The position numbers were made by a program, and so were the translations under genes. DNA of 44,538 nucleotides from a virus, in IMG/VR virus record IMGVR_UViG_3300038313_000260. One strand, written 5' to 3'. Under the pieces are notes generated by a model. It did not search any database, was not told the origin of the DNA, and was given only the letters and a program-made list of their open reading frames with translations. The first letter of the stretch is position 1; the number at the start of each line of letters is the position of its first letter. This document shows positions 13,209-31,291 of the stretch, piece after piece.

Positions 13209-14372
13209 TTATATAAATAAGCTATTTAATTTTTCAACCGCTGAAATTTTTTCTTTAGGCATTACATGAGTATATATATTAGCTGTGATTGAAATGTCAG
13301 AATGTCCTAGAAGGGTTTGAACAGTTTTAAGAGGGACATTTGCTTCAAATAATTTCGTGGCATAAGTATGACGCAAGGCATGAAATTTCTTGTGAGGTAT
13401 TTTAGCTTTTTTTAATAGATTTTTATAACTCATGAATAAATTTTTAGTGCTTAAAGGATTTCCAGTTGCAGTAGCGAAAATAAAATTATTATCCAAATAG
13501 GAAGGACCTGCTTTTATTTTTTCTAATTTTTGTTCTTTCTCATGTTCTTTTAAAACAGGAATTAAGGTTGAAGGAATAGGAACAATCCTATTAGATGTTT
13601 TGCTTTTAGGAGCCTGGGTTATAACTTCATGTCTTGAAGAACCATCAGATTCTATTATTTTTACACGTTTTATAGTTTTTTCAACCTTAACTTCCTTTAA
13701 GTCTGTGTCAATATCACTCCATTTTAATGCTAGGAGTTCTCCTTGCCTTAAACCAGTACCCAAAGCCATAAGTATTAAGCATTTCAATCTGTGCCCATTT
13801 AAAGCTTGTTTTAAAGTGTCTATTTCAGCATCAGTAAATATTGCAATTTCTGTGTCTTTAACATCTTTTTTACCTGGAATAATTATTTTTTTACCAGAAC
13901 AAGGATTCTTTAAAATATATCCTTCATCAACTGCGTAATTTAAAAATTGATTTAATAATTTATTTAGGCTTTTTATTGAACTACTGCTTTTACCATTATT
14001 GTAAAGATTATTATAGTATCTTTGAACTTGAAGGGATTTTAAGTCAGATAGTTTTAAGCTATATAATTCACTTTCTTTTATATAATTTCTGTATATTCCT
14101 TCGTAGCGTTCAAAAGAAGTTGGTTTAACTTTTATTTTCACAACTTCAAATAACCAAGTGTGCATTAAATTCCCTAATATTGTATCTTTATAATTTATAT
14201 TAAGACCATTTTTTATATTATTTATATATTCATCACGTTTATCCTCAGCTTCTGTTTTACTTTTACCATAGAATTCTTTCCTAATTAGCTTACCATTAGC
14301 ATCTCTCCCTATAGAGGTTGTTACTCTAAAATAATCATTACCGTTTTTGGTGTAGTTAGTCTTACGCGCCAT
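13209..14372 (-). CDS. int: Tyrosine integrase with N-terminal arm-type DNA-binding domain
   Basis: C-terminus HALRHTYATKL...LLGHSDISITANIYTHV (R-H-R-Y catalytic set). N-terminus MARKTNYTKNGNDYFRV...GK..RKEFYGKSKTEAE is typical of the AP2-like arm-binding domain. Adjacent to the attP candidate. Confidence 0.92.
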   Translation of the reverse strand: MARKTNYTKNGNDYFRVTTSIGRDANGKLIRKEFYGKSKTEAEDKRDEYINNIKNGLNINYKDTILGNLMHTWLFEVVKIKVKPTSFERYEGIYRNYIKESELYSLKLSDLKSLQVQRYYNNLYNNGKSSSSIKSLNKLLNQFLNYAVDEGYILKNPCSGKKIIIPGKKDVKDTEIAIFTDAEIDTLKQALNGHRLKCLILMALGTGLRQGELLALKWSDIDTDLKEVKVEKTIKRVKIIESDGSSRHEVITQAPKSKTSNRIVPIPSTLIPVLKEHEKEQKLEKIKAGPSYLDNNFIFATATGNPLSTKNLFMSYKNLLKKAKIPHKKFHALRHTYATKLFEANVPLKTVQTLLGHSDISITANIYTHVMPKEKISAVEKLNSLFI

Positions 14373-14491
14373 AAGCTTCCCCTTCCTTCTATAAATTTAT
14401 TATTTGCTCCAAAGCCTTTAGTTTCATTTAAATCTTTATATTTTACTTTGATGTCTAAATAAGAAATTATTTTTAACGGATTTCTTGTGTT

Positions 14492-14522
14492 ATATTTTGC
14501 TATAGTTAGTTTTGCGTGCTAT
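14492..14522 (-). pseudogene. Decayed duplicate of the integrase 5' end (ATA-GCA-CGC-AAA-ACT-AAC-TAT...)
   Basis: 14501-14522 matches 14351-14372 at 17/22 positions, exactly 150 bp away. The start codon is mutated ATG to ATA and a stop follows after 10 codons. Confidence 0.5.
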
Positions 14523-14536
14523 ATAATATCTACCCC

Positions 14537-14797
14537 TTATTTAATTCTTCTCAAAATAACTTCTTCGTGTTTTGCAACTTCATGTTCAATTCTGTTAAGC
14601 TGTTCGCTATTTTGCTTATAGCCATCAAATAATGCATTAAGTTTTTCTCCATGTTCATTCTCAATTTTAATAACAGTTTTTTCAACATTAGCTAATCGAG
14701 AACTTAAATCATCTTGCCCCTTCTTTAAATTATCTTGACCATCTTTTAAGTCAGCATACATCTTCTCCATTAAGTCAAATATTTTTTCACTTTCCAT
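14537..14797 (-). CDS. Coiled-coil protein, paralog 1 of 3 (87 aa from the MESEK start)
   Basis: GGGAG-N10-ATG. N-terminus MESEKIFDLMEKMYADLK is shared with the next two genes. Heptad-rich. Confidence 0.65.
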   Translation of the reverse strand: MESEKIFDLMEKMYADLKDGQDNLKKGQDDLSSRLANVEKTVIKIENEHGEKLNALFDGYKQNSEQLNRIEHEVAKHEEVILRRIK

Positions 14798-14823
14798 TTT
14801 TATCATTCTCCCTTTCATAAATT

Positions 14824-15252
14824 TTAAACAGGTCTACGTTTCAATATCTCAATATCTACTTGATGATGCCCGATAATATCCTTCATTGCTTCAATAGTTT
14901 CCTTGCTTTCCTTTACATCTTGTGTCGTACTTTTTAAAGCTGTTTCAACTAAATCAAAATGTTCGTTAACCATAGCATCTGAATTCTTAAAAGAAAGTTC
15001 ATTTTGTTCTTTATGAGCAGTTTGGACTTCAGCAACAGTATTAATCTTATTTTCTATAGATTCAAGGGATACAGAGTTCTTTTTAACTTCTGTTTCAACA
15101 TTAGCTGATCGGGAACTTAAATCATCTTGACCTTTTTTTAAATTATCCTGACCATCTTTTAAACCATTGATGTCACCTTTTAAGTCATTGATGTCGCCTT
15201 TCAAGTCAGCATACATCTTTTCCATAAGCTCAAATATTTTTTCATTTTCCAT
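14824..15252 (-). CDS. Coiled-coil protein, paralog 2 of 3 (142 aa)
   Basis: GAGGAG RBS. N-terminus MENEKIFELMEKMYADLK. Contains a 21-bp tandem duplication encoding LKGDINDLKGDINGLK. About 100 nt are near-identical to paralog 1. Confidence 0.7.
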   Translation of the reverse strand: MENEKIFELMEKMYADLKGDINDLKGDINGLKDGQDNLKKGQDDLSSRSANVETEVKKNSVSLESIENKINTVAEVQTAHKEQNELSFKNSDAMVNEHFDLVETALKSTTQDVKESKETIEAMKDIIGHHQVDIEILKRRPV

Positions 15253-15296
15253 TTTATCAGTCTCCTCTACTTTTTATACTTATATCCAATTAGCTC

Positions 15297-15773
15297 TTAA
15301 CCTTGCATCTTTTCATCTAAGCGTCTTTCAAATTCAATAACTTTATTTTCGGTTTTTACTGCCTTAGAAGTAGTGGTATTAACGTCAATTTGTAAATCAT
15401 CTATTTTTTCACTTAGTTTATTAAAGTTTTGGCCTAATGTTTTAGATGTATTGCTGACGGCAAGCTCTATAACATCAAGTCTGTCATTTATACTTCTCTT
15501 ATCATCATTATTATTGCGCCCTATTTGGCTCCTGAATGATTCTTGACCTTCTGCAAGTAATTTTACATTGCTATCAACTTTTTCAAGTAATATAGAGCTT
15601 TTAGCAGTATCAGCTTTTAAGTCTTTAACATTACTTTCAACATTGCTGAGCCTGTTATTCATTTTCTGCATTTCTGAATACATGTTATCCATTCTTGAAG
15701 TCATTTTGTCGAACTTGTTGTTCATTTCAGAATACATTTTAGACATTAAATCAAAAGTCTTATCGCTTTCCAT
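15297..15773 (-). CDS. Coiled-coil protein, paralog 3 of 3 (158 aa from the MESDK start)
   Basis: AAGGAG-N10-ATG. N-terminus MESDKTFDLMSKMYSEM. More diverged than the other two. Confidence 0.65.
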   Translation of the reverse strand: MESDKTFDLMSKMYSEMNNKFDKMTSRMDNMYSEMQKMNNRLSNVESNVKDLKADTAKSSILLEKVDSNVKLLAEGQESFRSQIGRNNNDDKRSINDRLDVIELAVSNTSKTLGQNFNKLSEKIDDLQIDVNTTTSKAVKTENKVIEFERRLDEKMQG

Positions 15774-15822
15774 CTTTATCAATCTCCTTTTCATTTAAGA
15801 TATTTATATTAACCTTAATGGG

Positions 15823-16287
15823 TTAAAACTTTTTTATAATCCCAAAATGGGGTTCGAACATTACTATGTAATTATCTATTTCAAAGTAGGCGCCATACTT
15901 TTCTCTATAATGCTGAATTGCTTCCTCTAAAAATTCCTCTGTAACTTCTAGGTATTCAGCTAATTCACATCTATTTCTGGCACCACTATTATAGGCATTT
16001 ACTATGTCAATAATACCTACTAATTTTTCATAACCCCAGTTGCGAGCTTTCTTCTCCTGTTTTACATTTTCAATTTTGTTTTGGTTGGTAATATTACCTA
16101 CAGTTTTATTATAATGCCCTAATTCTTCCGCTAGAATAACGTGTTTTTGTTTATCAAGTAAATTTCTATTTATTAATACTTTATTATTAGAGTAATAGCC
16201 ACATTCCTCACAATCCCCAAAATCTATCTCTTTAATTTTTATCTTATGTTTTTCAGCTTCAACTAATAAACTTTCGTATTTTGTCAT
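15823..16287 (-). CDS. ImmA/IrrE-like (M78-type) peptidase homolog with variant EELGH motif
   Basis: VILAEELGHY sits where the family has HExxH. Size is about 150 aa. Lies directly downstream of the XRE repressor in the same operon, the ImmR/ImmA arrangement. Confidence 0.7.
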   Translation of the reverse strand: MTKYESLLVEAEKHKIKIKEIDFGDCEECGYYSNNKVLINRNLLDKQKHVILAEELGHYNKTVGNITNQNKIENVKQEKKARNWGYEKLVGIIDIVNAYNSGARNRCELAEYLEVTEEFLEEAIQHYREKYGAYFEIDNYIVMFEPHFGIIKKF

Positions 16288-16304
16288 GTAACCCCCTTAT
16301 GAGA

Positions 16305-16733
16305 TTATTCCTCATCCATCTCTTTAAAAATCTCTTTTGCTTTATTTAATCTTTCTTTAGATTTTTCAGGGGATAATCCATCATCATGTGCTGCTAAGGT
16401 ATAAATTTCATTTTCTTCTTGTGTATATTTATTTATTTCAGTTAATTCAGATACTCTTTTGATAGCTTCATCTTTACCGGTTTCATTTAGTTTATTGAAG
16501 TTTGATATTAATGTTGTTTCTTTTTTATCTTTAATTTCAATGTCATCATCAAAATCGTCAAGTGTGCACCCTAATACTTTTGATAAAGCTTTTAGCGTTT
16601 CTAATTTAGGGTCTTTGGTAGTTCTATTTAATATTTTGTTTAAAGTTCCCAATGGCACTCCAGACATTTCGGAAAGTTCCTTTGATGTAAGATTCTTTTT
16701 CTTTTTTAATTCTTCTATAATTTCTAGTCCCAT
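16305..16733 (-). CDS. CI-like XRE-family repressor
   Basis: N-terminal HTH LTSKELSEMSGVPLGTLNKILNRTT. Divergent from the Cro-like gene. AGGGAG RBS. Confidence 0.85.
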   Translation of the reverse strand: MGLEIIEELKKKKNLTSKELSEMSGVPLGTLNKILNRTTKDPKLETLKALSKVLGCTLDDFDDDIEIKDKKETTLISNFNKLNETGKDEAIKRVSELTEINKYTQEENEIYTLAAHDDGLSPEKSKERLNKAKEIFKEMDEE

Positions 16734-16754
16734 ATTATCACTCCCTTGATATAC

Positions 16755-16880
16755 ATTATATAACGGTAATATTTTACCGTCAACTATTATTTTACCGTTA
16801 AATATAAAAATATTTTAAAAAAGGCATTGACTTTTACCGTTGAAGGGTATATTATATGATTAAACAAACCGTTAATGGTA
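16755..16880. promoter_or_regulatory. Lysis-lysogeny switch: divergent sigma-A promoters with ACGGTAA/TTACCGT operator sites
   Basis: Leftward promoter TTGACG-17-TATAAT (plus-strand coordinates 16778-16783 and 16755-16760), with the palindrome ACGGTAA-N4-TTACCGT (16763-16780) in its spacer. Rightward promoter TTGACT (16827-16832)-17-TATTAT (16850-16855), with TTACCGT (16834-16840) in its spacer. Further half-sites at 16792-16798 and 16868-16879. Confidence 0.7.
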
Positions 16881-16895
16881 AATGGAGATGATAAA

Positions 16896-17111
16896 ATGTA
16901 CCGCGAACTATTAGGAGAAATAGTAAAAAAGGGCCTAAATAGAAAGAAATTAGCTGAAAAAATTGGGGTTTCTGAAAAAACACTAAGAAATAAGTTAAAT
17001 GGGAAAACAGATTTTACATGGAGTGAAGTAAAAAAAATAAGAGATATCGTTGCCCCAGAGTATACTTTAGAAAAATTATTTGAAAAATCAGATACCAAAA
17101 ATCTAAATTAA
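16896..17111 (+). CDS. Cro-like HTH protein (71 aa; ATG 16896 preferred)
   Basis: GGAG RBS before ATG 16896. HTH LNRKKLAEKIGVSEKTLRNKLNGK. First gene of the rightward operon. Confidence 0.7.
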   Translation: MYRELLGEIVKKGLNRKKLAEKIGVSEKTLRNKLNGKTDFTWSEVKKIRDIVAPEYTLEKLFEKSDTKNLN

Positions 17112-24376: not shown

Positions 24377-24403
24377 GTGTGGCCACACCTCCAGACGTGG
24401 AGG
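24377..24403 (+). promoter_or_regulatory. Two GC-rich dyads upstream of the methyltransferase start; the second sequesters the RBS
   Basis: GTGTGGCCACAC (24377-24388) is a perfect palindrome. CCTCCA (24388-24393) pairs with TGGAGG (24398-24403), and the 3' arm of that pairing is the Shine-Dalgarno for ATG 24412. Confidence 0.45.
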
Positions 24404-24411
24404 GAAAGAAA

Positions 24412-25218
24412 ATGGGAAGTAGTAAAAAAATTAAAACAGAGTTATACAATGATAATTTCCAAAATTATAAAAGATATGGGATACCAAAAGCACAGCTGGT
24501 AATAGCAGATATACCTTATAACATTGGGAATAACTTTTACGGAAGTAATCCAATGTGGTACAAGGGTGGAGATAACAAAAATGGGGAGAGTAAGTTAGCT
24601 AAGAAAGCTGCATTTAATAGCGATTTTAATTTTAATATTGCTGAGTACTTCCATTTTTGTAATCGACTATTAAAAAAAGAGCCAGAAAAAAGCAATGGGC
24701 GAGGGAAATCATCAGATGCGCCTTGTATGATTGTATTTTGTTCTTTTGAACAAATACAAACAGTAATTAAATACGCTGAAAAATATGGATTTAAGCATAA
24801 CATACCTTTGATTTTTTGCAAGAACTATAGTCCTCAGGTGCTTAAAGCAAATATGAGAATTTGTGGTGCAACTGAATATGCATTAGTGTTGTACCGTGAA
24901 AAGCTTCCGAAGTTCAGGAATAATGGGAAAATGATTTTTAATTGGTTTGAGTGGCACAGAGATAAAACAAAGGTTTATCCTAAAATACATCCAGCCCAAA
25001 AGCCAGTAAATCTTTTAAAACAACTTATAAAGATATTTACAGATGAGGGCGACGTTGTAATAGATCCAGTAGCGGGGAGTGGAACAACCTTAAGAGCAGC
25101 TAGGGAATTAAATAGAAATAGTTATGGATTTGAAATATCTAAAGATTTTTATAAGAAAGCAAAAGAGCAAATGTTAGCTGAAAACAAAAGTGAATTTGAA
25201 CAATTATCTATAGTTTAA
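24412..25218 (+). CDS. Orphan beta-class DNA methyltransferase (N6A/N4C type)
   Basis: The motif IV variant ADIPYNIG lies N-terminal to motif I VIDPVAGSGTT, which is the beta permutation. No adjacent endonuclease gene. GGAGGG RBS before ATG 24412. Confidence 0.8.
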   Translation: MGSSKKIKTELYNDNFQNYKRYGIPKAQLVIADIPYNIGNNFYGSNPMWYKGGDNKNGESKLAKKAAFNSDFNFNIAEYFHFCNRLLKKEPEKSNGRGKSSDAPCMIVFCSFEQIQTVIKYAEKYGFKHNIPLIFCKNYSPQVLKANMRICGATEYALVLYREKLPKFRNNGKMIFNWFEWHRDKTKVYPKIHPAQKPVNLLKQLIKIFTDEGDVVIDPVAGSGTTLRAARELNRNSYGFEISKDFYKKAKEQMLAENKSEFEQLSIV

Positions 25219-25520: not shown

Positions 25521-25940
25521 ATGGATAAAAATTTAGGCAAAATATTTGAAGAAGATTTTAAAAAATCAGTGCCAGACTGGTGTTGGATATATAGATTCAG
25601 AGATGGAACAGCAAATTTTGCAGGAGAGAAGAACCAGAATGTTAGATTTCAAGCTCATAACATATGTGATTTTGAAGTTATGGCAAATAACAACTTGTTT
25701 CTCTTAGAGCTTAAGAGTTATCAAGGTGTGAGTATTCCACTAAGTGGCATAAGAAAAAACCAACTAGAAGGAATGATTAAAGCTAGTAGCTATAGGAATA
25801 TATACCCTTATTTTATACTCAATTTTAGGGGTGTACAGCGTGTTTATGCAATAAAGGTACAAACACTCTGTAACTTTATTTTAACAGCAAATAGGAAATC
25901 TATACCGTTAAAATGGGCTATGGAAATCCAGAACTCTTAA
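25521..25940 (+). CDS. RecU-like PD-(D/E)xK Holliday junction resolvase
   Basis: CDFEVMANNNLFLLELKSYQGVSIPLSGIRKNQLEGM matches the RecU D-(F/Y)...(F/L)E-K...(F/I)P...I...Q pattern. Confidence 0.55.
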   Translation: MDKNLGKIFEEDFKKSVPDWCWIYRFRDGTANFAGEKNQNVRFQAHNICDFEVMANNNLFLLELKSYQGVSIPLSGIRKNQLEGMIKASSYRNIYPYFILNFRGVQRVYAIKVQTLCNFILTANRKSIPLKWAMEIQNS

Positions 25941-26170: not shown

Positions 26171-26698
26171 ATGGTAGACGATAAAGCATTTAAAGAGATG
26201 GAACAAAAACTTTTTAATTATTTCAATAAAGATAAAAGGGTGAGTGTTCTAAATAAAAGGTTAGAGATTTTGAAAAAGCAAATATCTGAAATAGAGTACA
26301 AGTTAAGAAATGTTGATGTGGACCTCCCCGAAGAATCAAGAGCTGTTGGCTATAATGAAAGGGTTCAAACAAGTCCTACCGACGAAAGTTATGCCGAGAG
26401 AGCTTGCATGCATATAACGGATAAGTTGCTAAAGGAACAAGCTTGGAAAAAAGAACAGACCGCTGATATAGAAGAAACTATCAGGAATATTGAAGCAGAT
26501 AATGCATTTATTGAAGCTAATATAAAAGATCTAAGAGTTGAGGATCAGGAGTTTTTAAAAGAAAAATATAAATATGGAAAAACGGACTGGCAACTGGGGA
26601 TGAGGTTTGGTATGTCACAATCTACAGCTACAAGAGTAAAAAAACAATTAGTTCAAAATATTATTAATTGGGATGAATGGATAAAATGTATTGGTTAA
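26171..26698 (+). CDS. Late-gene transcriptional activator candidate (sigma-70 region-4-like HTH; RinA/ArpU-type by position)
   Basis: C-terminal HTH DWQLGMRFGMSQSTATRVKKQLVQNI. Last gene of the early/middle region before the packaging module. Confidence 0.5.
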   Translation: MVDDKAFKEMEQKLFNYFNKDKRVSVLNKRLEILKKQISEIEYKLRNVDVDLPEESRAVGYNERVQTSPTDESYAERACMHITDKLLKEQAWKKEQTADIEETIRNIEADNAFIEANIKDLRVEDQEFLKEKYKYGKTDWQLGMRFGMSQSTATRVKKQLVQNIINWDEWIKCIG

Positions 26699-26745
26699 AT
26701 TTATATGCAGTTGCTTCATTAATATACAATAATACATTGATTTAC

Positions 26746-26773
26746 TTGACTAATTTTTAAAATATGGTATGAT
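26746..26773 (+). promoter_or_regulatory. Sigma-A promoter of the 26797-28800 two-gene module
   Basis: TTGACT (26746-26751), 16-nt spacer, TATGAT (26768-26773), with an extended -10 TG at 26765-26766. Confidence 0.6.
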
Positions 26774-26796
26774 TACTATATTAATTTAATTAGAGG

Positions 26797-27585
26797 GTGG
26801 GTTATGTGTTAAAAAGTTCTATTCCAAAAGATGTTTTGGCTGAGAGATATGTTAGATTGGTGATTAAAGCAATAAATGATTCTAAAGAACAACAATATCA
26901 AGAATTGAATGGAAGAGGCTTTAATATCAATAATGGTAGATATCAGGATAGATGGAACTATTTATTTCATAATATAGAAGTATTATTTTCTGACAAGCCA
27001 TTTAAATGTTATGAAATCTGTAGGAGTGCATTATGGGGATTTGTAGCAATTTATAATTTGGGAAGCAAGATTTTATATATTATATTAAAAAAAGATAGAT
27101 TTAACACTATAAAGAATGATCATGAAAGTATGTATCATTATGTTAAAGTTTTAGATTCTATAAATTCAAATAAACCTTTTATCACTATATCTAAACCAAA
27201 ACAAATTTCATTATTTCCTACAAAGGAACCTTCATCGGAACATATATTTGATGATTTAGAAAGCATGTTAAGTGATATAAAAGATGAAATTAAATGGTGT
27301 GTAGATATACTTTTCACAGAAAATGCTAATGGAGTAGATTCAATATCAGGTAACTTGGCAACATATGATTTAGATATTTTTAAAACATATAATTGGAATA
27401 AGTATATTGTTCCTACTATTACAGAGATTAGTGATACTAAAGAAGGTGGAATTGTTAAATCTGATAAAAATCCACCAATTGAATTAAAGATTAGAAAAGG
27501 GAAACCTAGGGAATATAAAGAACAAGACATGGTTGCTAAAAAAGAGAAAGATGATAGGGGTAAAAAAAATACTGATGGGAATTAG
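26797..27585 (+). CDS. Unknown 262-aa protein, upstream partner of the HTH-peptidase fusion (candidate toxin/effector)
   Basis: GAGGGTGG RBS. The GTG start is ambiguous (26797 or 26806). No motif I recognise. The C-terminal 45 aa are strongly Lys/Glu/Asp-rich. Confidence 0.55.
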   Translation: MGYVLKSSIPKDVLAERYVRLVIKAINDSKEQQYQELNGRGFNINNGRYQDRWNYLFHNIEVLFSDKPFKCYEICRSALWGFVAIYNLGSKILYIILKKDRFNTIKNDHESMYHYVKVLDSINSNKPFITISKPKQISLFPTKEPSSEHIFDDLESMLSDIKDEIKWCVDILFTENANGVDSISGNLATYDLDIFKTYNWNKYIVPTITEISDTKEGGIVKSDKNPPIELKIRKGKPREYKEQDMVAKKEKDDRGKKNTDGN

Positions 27586-27618
27586 TTACATTTAGCATTT
27601 AGGAGGTTAACAGGTAAA

Positions 27619-28800
27619 ATGTTAAATACTAGTAAAAAAAGACATAGTAATTTTAATGGAGAAAGACTTAAATTCGCAAGGAAATATAGGGGGAAAACTA
27701 TAGCAGACTTGGCTCAAGACATAGGAATATCTAAACAAGCAATTTCTCAATTTGAAAATGGAAGATCATTCCCACTATTTGAAACATTAATGAAACTTAT
27801 AAATGTTTTAAAATTTCCACATGAATATTTTTACGAAGACGATGATATAAATATAGAATTAGGGAATACTTATTTTAGATCATCAAGTAAAATGACTAAA
27901 AGGGAGGAAAGCATTCAGAAAGAAAAAACTAAATTAATAGGGAAAATTTTTAGTTTTCTAGATGAATATATAGAATTTCCTAAATTAAATTTGCCTGAGT
28001 TTAAAGCAGATCTGACAATTGAAGAAATGGCTATAAAACTCAGAGAGCATTGGGGACTTGGAGAAGAGCCTATTAAAGATATAGTATATGTGCTCGAAAA
28101 AAATGGTGTAATAGTCACGTCAATGAATACTAATACTGATACTATAGACGCATATAGTCAGCAACAAAATATAAACGGGGAAAAACATTTTATAGTTGTA
28201 TTAGGGAATGACAAGCATTCAGCTACGAGAAGACAATTTAGTCTTGCACATGAGCTTGGGCATATAGTAATGCATGATAGTTTCTTAGATGTGGAAGATC
28301 TCACTAAAGAAGAGATTAGAAATATGGAAAATGAGGCACATACTTTTGCTTCAGCATTTCTATTGCCAAGGGATAGTTTTGGTAGGGATGTGAGTATATA
28401 TCCAACAGATTTGAACTACTATAAACAGTTAAAGAAGAAATGGAAGACCTCAATTTCTGCTATGTTGGTAAGAGCAAATCATTTAGGTATACTTACTAAT
28501 AGTTCATATCAGGTTGCTATGAAGAAAATGAGCAAACTTGGATGGAGAAAATGTGAACCTTTAGATGATACTTTGATAATGAATAGACCAACAGTTTTAA
28601 GAAGAGCGATTGACATCTTAATAGATAATGATATTTTAGATGAAAGTGGTATACTAAAAGAACTGTCTAATAGAGGATTGACGTTACCAACAGAAGAAAT
28701 TGAAATGTTGTTAGGGCTAGACAATGGAAAATTAAAGCCTAAGAATATAGACAACAATGATATAATACAAATACCATTAAGAAAAGAAAGTATGAATTAA
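27619..28800 (+). CDS. XRE-family HTH fused to an ImmA/IrrE (M78, COG2856) zinc peptidase domain
   Basis: N-terminal HTH KTIADLAQDIGISKQAISQFENGRSFP. Intact peptidase motif FSLAHELGHIVMH. AGGAGG RBS. Confidence 0.85.
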   Translation: MLNTSKKRHSNFNGERLKFARKYRGKTIADLAQDIGISKQAISQFENGRSFPLFETLMKLINVLKFPHEYFYEDDDINIELGNTYFRSSSKMTKREESIQKEKTKLIGKIFSFLDEYIEFPKLNLPEFKADLTIEEMAIKLREHWGLGEEPIKDIVYVLEKNGVIVTSMNTNTDTIDAYSQQQNINGEKHFIVVLGNDKHSATRRQFSLAHELGHIVMHDSFLDVEDLTKEEIRNMENEAHTFASAFLLPRDSFGRDVSIYPTDLNYYKQLKKKWKTSISAMLVRANHLGILTNSSYQVAMKKMSKLGWRKCEPLDDTLIMNRPTVLRRAIDILIDNDILDESGILKELSNRGLTLPTEEIEMLLGLDNGKLKPKNIDNNDIIQIPLRKESMN

Positions 28801-28918
28801 AGTTGCATTAAATATGAATTTGTTTTGCATTAAAATCTTTTCAAAATGTAATATAATAAGCATATAGGCAAGTGAGCCTAGATAAAATTCACTACAATAT
28901 ATTGTATTAATATGGAAT

Positions 28919-28950
28919 AAGCATCCAGCATTACCTAGGTGCTTATTTTT
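28919..28950 (+). terminator. Rho-independent terminator after the HTH-peptidase gene (member of the TAGGTGCTT terminator family)
   Basis: AAGCATC (28919-28925) pairs with GGTGCTT (28938-28944), followed by ATTTTT. Confidence 0.6.
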
Positions 28951-28958
28951 ATGCCTAT

Positions 28959-28997
28959 AGCCATATGGATGTGAACTAATTTCACATCCATATGGCT
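28959..28997. repeat. 17-bp-stem perfect hairpin between convergent units
   Basis: AGCCATATGGATGTGAA (28959-28975), loop CTAAT, TTCACATCCATATGGCT (28981-28997). Lies 11 nt from the hicB stop. Confidence 0.8.
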
Positions 28998-29007
28998 GAG
29001 ATAATTA

Positions 29008-29412
29008 TTAGTTTTTAATATTAAGTTTTTCTTTAAGAGCTGATTGAATAACTTGTGAAAAATTTATACTGTTTTTTTCGGCTAAATTTTTCAACCATTG
29101 AGGCATAGTAACAGTTGTTTTAACAGAAGTATTCTGAATAGCTTCACGATATAATGGCATATAAACATCTACTAGTAAAGGTATTTCATTTTTATTGACT
29201 TTAATTTTATTTATTGGTGATGGGCCTGGTATTTCAATATTATCTTTTTCCATACCAAATAAGTGCAATGCTAAGACTTCTTTAGCACTTTTAACAGCAT
29301 CATCCATATTGTCAGCATTTGAAACACAACCAGGTAGATCAGGGAAAGTTATACCTACATTGTCTTTATATTGAGTTAATATAGCTGGATAAATATAAAC
29401 ATCTTTTTTCAT
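29008..29412 (-). CDS. hicB: HicB-family antitoxin (module 1)
   Basis: YPAIL...GITFPDLPGCVS.ADNMDDAVKSAKEVL.LHL is the HicB N-domain. The C-terminal TVTMPQWL...A...INFSQVIQSALKEKL is RHH-like. Confidence 0.85.
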   Translation of the reverse strand: MKKDVYIYPAILTQYKDNVGITFPDLPGCVSNADNMDDAVKSAKEVLALHLFGMEKDNIEIPGPSPINKIKVNKNEIPLLVDVYMPLYREAIQNTSVKTTVTMPQWLKNLAEKNSINFSQVIQSALKEKLNIKN

Positions 29413-29466
29413 GTTAGCTTAACCTCCTAATAATATATATTAAACTTTCAAGGGATAAGGGAGGGA

Positions 29467-29658
29467 TTAAGAAAATTTAATCCCCGTTTGTTTTTCAATA
29501 CTCTTTATGTTTTTTATACCTAAATCTTTAACAGGGTGCCTAATGGTTGCTAATTTATGCCCATCAGTGTATTGGTAATGGTCGCCGATCACTCTTTTTA
29601 AGTACCAGCCATGCTGTTTGAGTATCTTAATTACATCCCTTGATGAGTAAGATTTCAT
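29467..29658 (-). CDS. hicA: HicA-family mRNA interferase toxin (module 1)
   Basis: 63 aa. S-RDVIKILKQHGW...R..GDHYQY....KLATIRHP.KDLGIKNIKSIEKQTG is the HicA pattern. Confidence 0.85.
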   Translation of the reverse strand: MKSYSSRDVIKILKQHGWYLKRVIGDHYQYTDGHKLATIRHPVKDLGIKNIKSIEKQTGIKFS

Positions 29659-29681
29659 TTAACTTTCCTCCCTATAATTAT

Positions 29682-29710
29682 AGTATAGCACGTCTTTAAA
29701 GACGTGTCAA
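29682..29710 (-). promoter_or_regulatory. hicAB-1 promoter with palindromic operator in the spacer
   Basis: Minus strand TTGACA-17-TATACT. The 18-bp perfect palindrome CACGTCTTTAAAGACGTG (29689-29706) spans the 17-nt spacer and overlaps the -35 element by 2 nt. Confidence 0.7.
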
Positions 29711-29783
29711 ATAAAATAAGAAAATAATTTACTAGGTTGGGGCGAAATTTTGTGGCTTCAGCCATGTTAGGTCACGGCAGAAA

Positions 29784-29815
29784 TAAAAAAGCTATAGATA
29801 ATTGCATCTACAGCT
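29784..29815 (-). terminator. Rho-independent terminator of hicAB module 2
   Basis: Minus strand AGCTGTAGAT pairs with ATCTATAGCT (10 bp, one G-U pair), followed by TTTTT. Confidence 0.8.
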
Positions 29816-29825
29816 TTTATTAACT

Positions 29826-30233
29826 TTATTTATAATCTTTAATTTTTAGTTGCTCTTTAATGGCAGCTTGAAGAAGTTGGGAGAAGTTAATTTTGTTATC
29901 TTCAGCTATTTTATTTAACCAATAAGGAATAGTCAATGTTTTCTTGACAGCTTTATTAGCCATTTCATTTCTTATCAGTGGCATATAAGCTTCAATAGGC
30001 GCTATAAAAGAATTATTAGAAACTTTAATACTTTCAGGAGAAGATGGTAATGGAATTTTTTCATTATCATCTTCTAAGTTATATATATAAAGTTCTAAAG
30101 CATCTTTTGCCATATACATGGCTGACTTTAAATCATCACCTTCAGTTATACAACCAGGTAAGTCAGGAAATGAAATACAGTAGCCACCATCTTCGCTAGG
30201 TTCAAATATAGCTGGGAAAATAAAAGTATCCAT
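29826..30233 (-). CDS. hicB: HicB-family antitoxin (module 2)
   Basis: FPAIFEPSEDGGYCISFPDLPGCITEGDDLKSAMYMAKDAL, plus the C-terminal LTIPYWL...INFSQLLQAAIKEQL. Confidence 0.85.
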   Translation of the reverse strand: MDTFIFPAIFEPSEDGGYCISFPDLPGCITEGDDLKSAMYMAKDALELYIYNLEDDNEKIPLPSSPESIKVSNNSFIAPIEAYMPLIRNEMANKAVKKTLTIPYWLNKIAEDNKINFSQLLQAAIKEQLKIKDYK

Positions 30234-30296
30234 ATTTTAAGACCTCCTTAATTTTTTAAATTATTTTTTATATTAAACCTTTTTACAAGAGGGCTT

Positions 30297-30479
30297 TTAT
30301 TTAAGCCCTGCTTGTTTAAGTATTGAATTTAATGTCCCTGGCTTTAAGTCTTTGTTATGATTAGGTATTGTCAGTTTACCAGGTTTCGTTTTGTGTGCTA
30401 GGTAGATGTGGGAACCTCTTTGGCTCTTTATCTCCCAGCCTTCTTTAGTTAGTATTTTTAGTATTTCTTTTGGTTTCAT
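30297..30479 (-). CDS. hicA: HicA-family mRNA interferase toxin (module 2)
   Basis: 60 aa. KPKEILKILTKEGWEIKSQRGSHIYL.H...PGKLTIPNHNKDLKPGTLNSILKQAGL. Confidence 0.88.
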   Translation of the reverse strand: MKPKEILKILTKEGWEIKSQRGSHIYLAHKTKPGKLTIPNHNKDLKPGTLNSILKQAGLK

Positions 30480-30601: not shown

Positions 30602-31291
30602 ATGACAGATATAAGAGGACCAGATATAAGAGATCAGGCAAAACAAGATTACTTACAAGGTATGAAATATAAAAATCTTGCTGAAAAGTATGAAGTGAGT
30701 TTAAATACAATAAAGTCCTGGGTAAAAAGATATGGTTGGTCAGAAGAGAAAAAGAAGGGCGCACACAAAAATAAAAAGGGTGCGCCCTTAAATAATAAGA
30801 ACGCAGTAGGCCATGGAGCTCCGATAAGGAATAGGAATGCGGAGAAACATGGCTTTTTCTCTAAGTATCTTCCTGAAGAAACTTTAGATATTATTCAAGA
30901 TATAGAAACAAAAGCTCCTTTAGATATGCTTTGGGATCAAATAACGATACAGTATGCAGCAATTATAAGGGCACAAAAGATTATGCATGTTGAATCCAAA
31001 GATGAAATGATAAAAGAATTAAAAAAGACAAAAGATTCATGGGGTGATAAGGGCTCATCGGAAGAAAAAGAATATGAATTCCAGTTTGCTTGGGATAGAC
31101 AGGCTACTTTTTTAAATGCACAGAGTAGAGCTATATCAGAGTTAAGAAGTTTAATTAAAAACTATTTAGAATTAGAAGGATTAGATAAAGAAAAATCTAA
31201 AGCTGGTATTAAAGATTGGAAATCAGCTATTCAGGAGATTGCTAAACGTAGAGAAAAGAAGCAACAATCTGAGGTGAATTCAAATGGATGA
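30602..31291 (+). CDS. terS: Terminase small subunit
   Basis: N-terminal [37 protein letters not shown], followed by [23 protein letters not shown] repeats common in Firmicute phage TerS. Directly precedes and overlaps terL. Confidence 0.8.

Follow-up and report, generated by a model that had tools for sequence, protein, structure and literature searches.

The virus record IMGVR_UViG_3300038313_000260 of IMG/VR comprises 44,538 nucleotides (nt) of DNA, which we call the window, and it raises the question of what two neighbouring genes within it do. The genes lie on the same strand at 26797-27585 (+) and 27619-28800 (+), where an earlier note made from the sequence alone had placed them; that note proposed a toxin-antitoxin (TA) or anti-phage module and pointed to a link with RosmerTA. 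We are highly confident that the module is RosmerTA, with the toxin gene rmrT preceding the antitoxin gene rmrA. We further consider it probable that the pair is a phage- or prophage-borne moron of the abortive-infection type, with its own constitutive-type promoter and a toxin that may bind the sliding clamp and so arrest replication. Judged from its sequence, the locus appears to be a further member of a known system, with a toxin type that is catalogued but experimentally unstudied. The two genes and their parts are as follows.

26797-27585 (+): rmrT, toxin gene (DUF5986), from matches in Pfam, PADLOC and PHROG
27202-27216 (+): codons of QISLF, RmrT residues 136-140, candidate beta-clamp-binding motif, from an alignment and an AlphaFold2 (AF2) model
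27448-27582 (+): charged C-terminal tail of RmrT, residues 218-262, modelled at low confidence (predicted local distance difference test, pLDDT, 51-64)
27619-28800 (+): rmrA, antitoxin gene, 393 amino acids (aa), from matches in Pfam and PADLOC
27658-27834 (+): XRE helix-turn-helix (HTH) of rmrA, residues 14-72, HTH_19/HTH_3
28105-28476 (+): M78/ImmA-IrrE Zn-peptidase of rmrA, residues 163-286, Peptidase_M78, separated from the HTH by a linker
28249-28263 (+): HELGH of rmrA, residues 211-215
28477-28797 (+): C-terminal region of rmrA, about 105 aa

The link to RosmerTA is borne out by the antitoxin. RmrA matches the PADLOC model RmrA PDLC03944 at E 4e-177 over positions 3-380 of 384, and it shares 32% identity over 307 aa (E 2e-45) with the verified RmrA of E. 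coli OLC-716, whose sequences were taken from Table S2 of Millman et al. 2022. Both proteins have about 370-390 aa and combine an XRE HTH with a Zn-peptidase. The HTH and the intact M78 domain that the earlier note had recognised are both recovered by Pfam, and the HELGH provides an HExxH that is followed by a downstream Glu and an FAxxLLxP segment, a predicted zinc site. The 12 RmrA sequences compared all share residues H211, E212, H215, E237, A240, F243, F247, L248, L249 and P250. By sequence, CapP (7t5t) is the nearest relative with a solved structure, and the segment aligns with the active-site region of CapP. RmrA appears to be the antitoxin of the pair and probably serves as an autorepressor.

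The protein encoded upstream, in which the earlier note had recognised no family and suspected an undescribed effector, is already represented in Pfam, in PHROGs and among the PADLOC RmrT models. It matches Pfam DUF5986 (PF19448) with 254.3 bits (E 1.5e-75; gathering threshold 25 bits) over profile positions 1-238 of 238, and it belongs to PHROG phrog_26280. The adjacent, co-oriented partner of RmrA is thus a catalogued RmrT: it matches PADLOC RmrT PDLC03930 at E 2e-59 over positions 7-244 of 247, and this is the sole RmrT model matched out of about 12, which include PDLC03935 for the verified E. coli toxin, PDLC03930 for DUF5986 and PDLC03931 for a Staphylococcus type. An exhaustive profile search returned 340 DUF5986 representatives (50% clustering), nearly all of 230-270 aa. 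A general protein homologue search was far less sensitive for the family, with 6 and 8 matches, and a genome-contig scan with the RmrT alignment found 3 loci only. A literature search for "DUF5986" retrieved no paper. No transmembrane segment was found in RmrT, in which the maximum KD19 value of 1.55 falls inside a modelled beta-hairpin; from these features RmrT would be a soluble toxin of a catalogued family.

PADLOC, to which the earlier note had looked as a check, has models that match both proteins over their full length and would therefore label the locus RosmerTA; DefenseFinder would presumably flag the module too. Like the system of E. coli OLC-716, that of the window consists of two genes with the toxin first. 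The two toxins are alike in their length of about 240-260 aa, their charged C-terminal tails and a mid-protein segment resembling a clamp-binding motif (CBM), which is QLKLDL in the verified E. coli RmrT and QISLF in the window. The toxins match different RmrT models (PDLC03935 and PDLC03930, respectively) and the hosts differ, the window belonging to a low-GC Clostridium-type phage. The E. coli system protects against some phages, and its delta-rmrA mutant could not be transformed, possibly because of toxicity (Millman et al. 2022). A phage-encoded RosmerTA with an ImmA-type antitoxin is known, as in the window, from Gordonia phage Kita, whose RmrTA defends against some coliphages (Ernits et al. 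2023, PMC10440598).

The chemistry of RmrA, an XRE HTH together with an M78 Zn-peptidase, is shared with ImmR/ImmA, DdrO/IrrE and CapH/CapP, and PADLOC capP and capH matches are obtained. In ImmR/ImmA and CapH/CapP, however, the two functions are encoded by separate genes that control an adjacent operon, an arrangement that the module does not have: RmrA fuses both functions and adds an extra C-terminal region. Its partner is a toxin, whereas the partner of ImmR/ImmA, DdrO/IrrE and CapH/CapP is a regulated operon. No CBASS genes were found near the module, and neither CBASS genes nor those of integrative and conjugative elements adjoin it.

The earlier note had asked whether homologues of the upstream gene stand consistently beside HTH-M78 genes in other genomes, and in all complete loci examined they do. 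A DUF5986 gene is followed by rmrA in 10/10 complete loci found with either protein. Two C. tetani prophages with different backbones and one Logan metagenome contig have the DUF5986 gene directly before an HTH+M78 gene. Even a DUF5986 member only 20% identical keeps such a partner on ParA-bearing elements, in one case as a tandem double pair and in the others next to an OLD/AAA_21 nuclease gene. Viral contigs with RmrA homologues (27-80% identity) have an abutting upstream open reading frame (ORF) on the same strand in 69 of 75 cases; 38 of these ORFs are DUF5986 and the remainder fall into about 12 other clusters. The C. tetani phage phiCT9441A and the Clostridioides difficile phages phiCD27/phiCD418 carry the pair immediately after a RinA-like late activator and before the terminase, the position it also has in the window. 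Their toxins are of the same DUF5986 type (E 1.1e-69 in phiCT9441A and E 1.7e-75 in phiCD418), and so are their RmrA proteins, at 70% identity in phiCT9441A and 42% in phiCD27/phiCD418. They differ from the window in that toxin identity is 24-42%, HicAB pairs are absent and the other flanking cargo is not the same.

In these phages the pair is labelled only as a hypothetical protein with an 'XRE regulator' or 'cI-like repressor'. The phiCD418 pair (MW512573.1, 49186-51123) and the phiCD27 pair (NC_011398.1, about 48.4-49.6 kb) are annotated as a hypothetical protein followed by a 'putative cI-like repressor' or 'phage DNA-binding protein', and these labels probably mis-annotate a RosmerTA module. 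Other arrangements were also seen. One metagenomic ParA-bearing element (L013, 1-5975) carries two tandem DUF5986-RmrA pairs about 3 kb apart, and in its sister contigs (L014-L016) a DUF2971 gene and an AAA_21/OLD-TOPRIM (Gabija/PARIS-like) gene stand in place of the first pair; this looks like a cassette exchange in a defence island. RmrA homologues 41% identical to that of the window (L062, L063, L065, L066) are preceded by an ORF of 162-170 aa in place of the toxin of about 250 aa. This ORF ends about 150-170 nt 5' of the RmrA homologue and gives no DUF5986 signal, and such homologues may be orphan or remodelled antitoxins.

How the toxin might act is suggested by a comparison with RipA of S. 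pneumoniae. Spr1630 (RipA) and Spr1629 (RipB) have been called a Rosmer TA (Maziero et al., PLoS Genet 2025; PMC12795458 / bioRxiv 10.1101/2025.09.02.673660). RipB acting in trans neutralises the toxic RipA, ripB is deletable only in the absence of ripA, and it is ripA that makes clpX essential; a yeast two-hybrid assay shows an interaction of RipA with DnaN, and every suppressor of RipA toxicity lies in the hydrophobic pocket where DnaN binds peptides (PMC12795458). In a transposon-sequencing (Tn-seq) preprint, RmrT toxins account for the essentiality of clpX in S. pneumoniae, and rmrA is essential.

We recovered the RipA sequence by searching metagenome contigs for the published 5' ripA primer (S2 Table). 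Nine of the 15 primer-bearing contigs have a 243-aa ORF of identical length. In the contig that was translated (L111), the last residues of this ORF are those that the reverse primer encodes, and 14 nt beyond it begins the gene of a 383-aa HTH+HELGH protein, RipB, which is 30% identical to the RmrA of the window (E 3e-46). In a further five of the 15 contigs (L110, L112, L114, L116, L122) the ripA ORF is shortened to 27-71 aa, which suggests that the toxin is often naturally inactivated in streptococcal populations.

RipA is a member of PADLOC RmrT PDLC03931 (E 1.6e-80), a model that does not match the RmrT of the window; the relation between the two is visible only profile-to-profile. By hhalign, RipA aligns with the DUF5986 profile at a probability of 84% (E 7.6e-6), collinear over 174 columns, and Staphylococcus members of PDLC03931 align with DUF5986 at 92.5%. 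The RipA segment PIQMELV falls under the Q-x-S-L-F columns of DUF5986. These alignments place DUF5986, in our reading, as a remote sister family of RipA, the sole Rosmer toxin with a known target (DnaN). RipAB and the window pair are also alike in gene order, in a similar TG-extended -10 element and in the HELGH of the antitoxin. They differ in that QMELV of RipA is less canonical than QISLF/QLSLF, and in that RipAB is chromosomal, with competence induction as its studied output, whereas the window pair is phage-borne. Dependence on ClpX is known for RipAB only.

An AF2 model of RmrT was built from 69 diverse homologues (pLDDT 85; predicted template modelling score 0.76). The modelled chain opens with two long N-terminal helices, followed by a three-stranded sheet accompanied by helices, a long coil at residues 125-146, a further helix and another sheet of three strands; the tail is disordered. 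A Foldseek search of the PDB and BFVD with this model gave no match below E 0.06, and a profile search of PDB sequences gave no match. QISLF sits in the DSSP coil between helices 115-124 and 147-158 with a pLDDT of 80-89, an accessible segment with the form expected of a clamp client. The CBM consensus is QL[S/D]LF, or more generally QxxLF, and the conserved PolC motif of Firmicutes is QLSLF (PMC12309361). The DUF5986 consensus at this place is likewise QLSLF, identical to the canonical beta-clamp-binding motif. Over the 69 diverse members, the columns hold Q in 63/69, L/I/M in 47/69, S/T/D in 47/69, L/F/M/I in 67/69 and F in 45/69. The motif is the most conserved short segment outside the RmrT core in this alignment; it is followed by acidic residues, and its loop is rich in indels. 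Among 146 full-length family representatives, the strict motif occurs in 30 (0.8 in shuffles) and the QxxLF form in 75 (12.7 in shuffles), always within residues 118-141. Other RmrT families have CBM-like motifs at residues 112-155 in 15 of 30 sequences, QLKLDL of the verified E. coli RmrT among them, compared with 4.3 expected, although these sequences are not independent, and hhalign of DUF5986 with RmrT clusters 1 and 4 is collinear with weak E values of 0.01-0.025. The RmrT peptide KPKQISLFPTKE is the one that we name as a candidate DnaN ligand. In the paper on RipA the word "motif" appears nowhere, and the literature searched contains no description of a family-wide clamp motif.

Taken with the work on RipAB, these features can be arranged into a mechanism. 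In a lysogen, RmrA would neutralise RmrT in the way that RipB acts in trans on RipA, perhaps assisted by ClpX, and would probably autoregulate the operon through its HTH. Some trigger, for example a second infecting phage or replication or DNA stress, might inactivate RmrA, or the toxin might outpace the antitoxin. Free RmrT would then dock through QISLF in the peptide-binding pocket of DnaN, in competition with PolC and other clamp clients, and DNA replication would be arrested in the cell and in any invading phage that depends on the clamp. We regard docking of QISLF in the DnaN pocket, with the clamp as the target of the toxin, as evenly balanced between true and false. The wider proposal, that DUF5986 RmrT, and perhaps the majority of the soluble RmrT families that have RmrA as partner, are sliding-clamp poisons that shut down replication by mimicking the clamp-binding peptide of PolC/DnaE, is tentative and falls slightly short of even confidence. 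SocAB of Caulobacter crescentus is a functional analogue only: neither its toxin nor its antitoxin has sequence or structural homology to the window proteins, and SocA is a ClpXP adaptor, whereas the antitoxin here is an HTH-peptidase.

A number of observations weigh against a clamp-binding toxin. The E. coli OLC-716 and window toxins have no detectable sequence relation (BLASTP E 0.76; hhalign 0.2%). Since RmrT is variable in the literature, the lack of homology to the E. coli toxin is no bar to membership of RosmerTA, but with the toxins unrelated the defence phenotype of the E. coli system is not transferable by toxin homology. RipA scores below the threshold of Pfam DUF5986, so the two are only remotely homologous and may differ in function; RipA has V under the F column of the motif (QMELV), and no RipA residues that contact DnaN have been published. 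The strict motif is present in only about 20% of DUF5986 representatives and QxxLF in about 50%, and some close relatives of the window RmrT have degenerate forms (QTSFI, KINMF). The pLDDT of the loop is fairly high, and the motif could therefore be packed rather than free. The literature searched contains no experiment on any DUF5986-type RmrT. Finally, RmrT-D5 of phage Kita acts by membrane depolarisation (PMC10440598), so that RmrT mechanisms are not uniform.

This diversity of RmrT families and mechanisms leads to the rival explanation that survives best, although we judge it unlikely: the module is RosmerTA, but RmrT kills through membrane damage, as a nuclease or other enzyme, or by acting on a different target. 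QISLF would then serve, for example, in recognition by RmrA or ClpX, in keeping with the degeneracy of the motif in part of DUF5986. The fold of RmrT has no assignment, and the conserved residues W53, W80, H114-Y115 and N123 suggest a pocket. Membrane damage fits poorly with a protein that lacks a transmembrane segment, whereas the Kita toxin D5 has predicted transmembrane regions. PD-(D/E)XK nucleases (EcoRV, NucC) were the only proteins to recur among the Foldseek matches; this candidate was rejected, as the matches were non-significant (E at least 0.3; TM about 0.2) and acidic and lysine catalytic residues are not conserved in RmrT. Killing by any other route must also account for a DUF5986 consensus that is exactly the canonical CBM and lies in an indel-rich loop, and for RipA, the sole homologous toxin with target data, which points to the DnaN pocket.

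A second rival, which we think improbable, takes the pair mainly as an addiction or stabilisation module, or as a prophage stress switch, with no meaningful anti-phage function. Such a role would agree with the essentiality of rmrA in Tn-seq, a feature of classic addiction modules. RipAB is chromosomal and tied to competence, and its link to phages is merely suggested for exploration (PMC12795458); S. thermophilus RosmerTA homologues are described as 'inefficient against most tested phages' (PMC12322248). The protection against some phages conferred by E. coli OLC-716 RosmerTA and by Kita RmrTA speaks against it, as do DUF5986-RmrA pairs that lie beside OLD/AAA_21 genes and in prophage hotspots adjoining HicAB pairs, and one TA can serve addiction and defence alike. 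For an anti-phage role of the module in its native host, we see the two sides as equally weighted.

It is very improbable that the 393-aa protein is a lifecycle regulator (a cI-like repressor or ImmA-like anti-repressor) and the 262-aa protein an accessory phage protein outside any TA: GenBank labels of 'putative cI-like repressor' or 'transcriptional regulator', the phrog_2439 label 'transcriptional regulator' and an HTH+M78 architecture resembling a fused ImmR/ImmA or CapH/CapP would fit such a role, but the window has separate integrase-linked HTH_3 (16305-16733) and M78 (15823-16287) genes, the pair is also found away from phages, on ParA-bearing elements and as a tandem duplicate, and homologous antitoxins are essential only when the toxin is present.

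As a locus, the module is routine for PADLOC, yet equivalent pairs are unannotated or mis-annotated in phiCD27, phiCD418 and C. tetani phages. Temperate phages of Clostridium and Clostridioides carry RosmerTA cargo in a fixed hotspot between late activator and terminase, beside other TA cargo. The DUF5986 motif and the link to RipA offer a testable mechanism for a widespread defence toxin, and a possible explanation of how RosmerTA stops phages reliant on the replisome of the host. If the clamp-binding reading is true, RosmerTA would largely be a form of 'replication-arrest' immunity, with S. pneumoniae RipA as one case of a family-wide mechanism encoded in a motif.

The C-terminal tail of RmrT was also considered. 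The earlier note had described the last 45 residues as highly charged, and 51% of them are indeed K/R/D/E. The tail holds a conserved short motif, PPIELKIRK (residues 226-234, nt 27472-27498), in which P226, I228, L230 and I232 are invariant among close RmrT homologues. RmrA might dock at this motif or cleave it, or the motif might be a signal related to ClpX. Motifs with alternating hydrophobic residues also occur in the tails of unrelated RmrT families (TPDIDLDILK in the verified E. coli RmrT, LPQIDLSE in Gordonia phages), and the C-terminal counterpart in RipA is EIIPRIEK. A universal 'PxIxLxI[RK]K' RmrA-docking peptide shared across toxin families was considered and rejected: a two-residue alternation is expected by chance, and the conservation of the tail motif is therefore solid only within a family.

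Expression of the module was examined from the flanking DNA, in which the following features are placed.

26746-26773 (+): sigma-A-type promoter, TTGACT, 16 nt, TG-n-TATGAT, scoring 10/12 with TG extension in a consensus scan
28916-28947 (+): terminator-like hairpin AAUAAGCAUC...GGUGCUUAUU of 10-12 bp, then a U tract to 28952, from RNA folding
28959-28997: perfect 17-bp hairpin between the convergent rmrA and hicB, from folding and sequence reading

The window is AT-rich and promoter-like sites are common in it (38 observed, 27 expected), so the consensus scan by itself is weak proof of a promoter. The strong sigma-A promoter claimed in the earlier note gains support from an alignment of the regions 5' of nine related toxin genes: ACTTGAC-N17-TGGTATAAT is kept in 9 related loci with otherwise unalignable upstream flanks, from which it follows that the module brings its own promoter along. 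A 9-nt perfect inverted repeat, ATTAATATA/TATATTAAT (26718-26726, 26777-26785), flanks the promoter on both sides and is possibly an operator, a weak assignment because the region is AT-rich. The longest rmrT ORF has a GTG start and 262 aa, and the rmrA ORF begins with ATG after an intergenic gap of 33 nt. The real start of rmrT is probably the GTG at 26806, giving a protein of 259 aa, since the position of the ribosome-binding site (AGAGGGTGGG at 26792-26801), the N-termini of homologues and the aligned loci all agree with a beginning there.

The earlier note also placed a terminator after the pair. A simple terminator consensus scan listed none after rmrA, but a hairpin with a U tract does exist, not directly after the stop codon but about 115 nt downstream, and folding 28795-29010 as RNA gives a z-score of -5.0. 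The second hairpin, at 28959-28997, is likely to be a bidirectional transcription stop. The rmrA stop and the first hairpin are separated by 115 nt (28801-28915). This stretch holds a direct repeat, TTGCATTAAA, whose copies at 28803-28812 and 28825-28834 are spaced 22 nt apart, and also a promoter-like site, TTAAAA-16-TATAAT, at 28830-28857. It has no Rfam match; it could encode a short RNA of about 85 nt that stops at the 28916-28947 hairpin, or it could bind a protein. An Rfam scan of the whole window returned zero matches.

The window looks like an entire, circularly permuted genome of a temperate siphovirus-type phage from a low-GC (30.7%), Clostridium-like host. Its genes outside the module include the following.

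13209-14372 (-): tyrosine integrase
15823-16287 (-): stand-alone Peptidase_M78 gene
16305-16733 (-): HTH_3 repressor-like gene
26171-26698: phrog_36 late-regulator-like gene, from a PHROG match

The integrase, the stand-alone M78 gene and the HTH_3 repressor-like gene form the phage's own lysogeny module (13209-17098, -). The HTH/M78 pair at 15823-16733 appears to be an ImmR/ImmA-type switch and is a better ImmR/ImmA candidate than rmrA, so that the genome would hold two M78 peptidases with differing roles. The window also encodes replication and recombination genes and a DNA methylase. The methylase (N6/N4, PF01555, E 3.6e-30, 24379-25218, +) has no adjacent restriction gene and may be anti-restriction cargo; after it, just 5' of the late regulator, comes a RecU-like resolvase (25521-25940, +).

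The gene order runs from the late regulator through the rmrT-rmrA module and two HicA/HicB pairs on the opposite strand (29008-30479) to terS, terL and portal, the small and large terminase genes starting at 30602. The module thus lies between the late activator and terS, as the earlier note had it, but does not directly adjoin terS, from which the two HicAB pairs separate it. With RosmerTA and the two HicAB pairs, this hotspot holds three TA modules within about 3.8 kb. The HicAB pairs, at 29008-29658 (-) and 29826-30479 (-), encode HicB of 134 and 135 aa and HicA of 63 and 60 aa, and their promoters are near-consensus (29710-29682 scores 11/12 with TG; 30530-30502 scores 12/12). At the nucleotide level, GenBank phages match the window only through C. 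tetani phages over the HicAB region, where one HicAB pair is 74% identical in DNA to that of C. tetani phage phiCT19406B.

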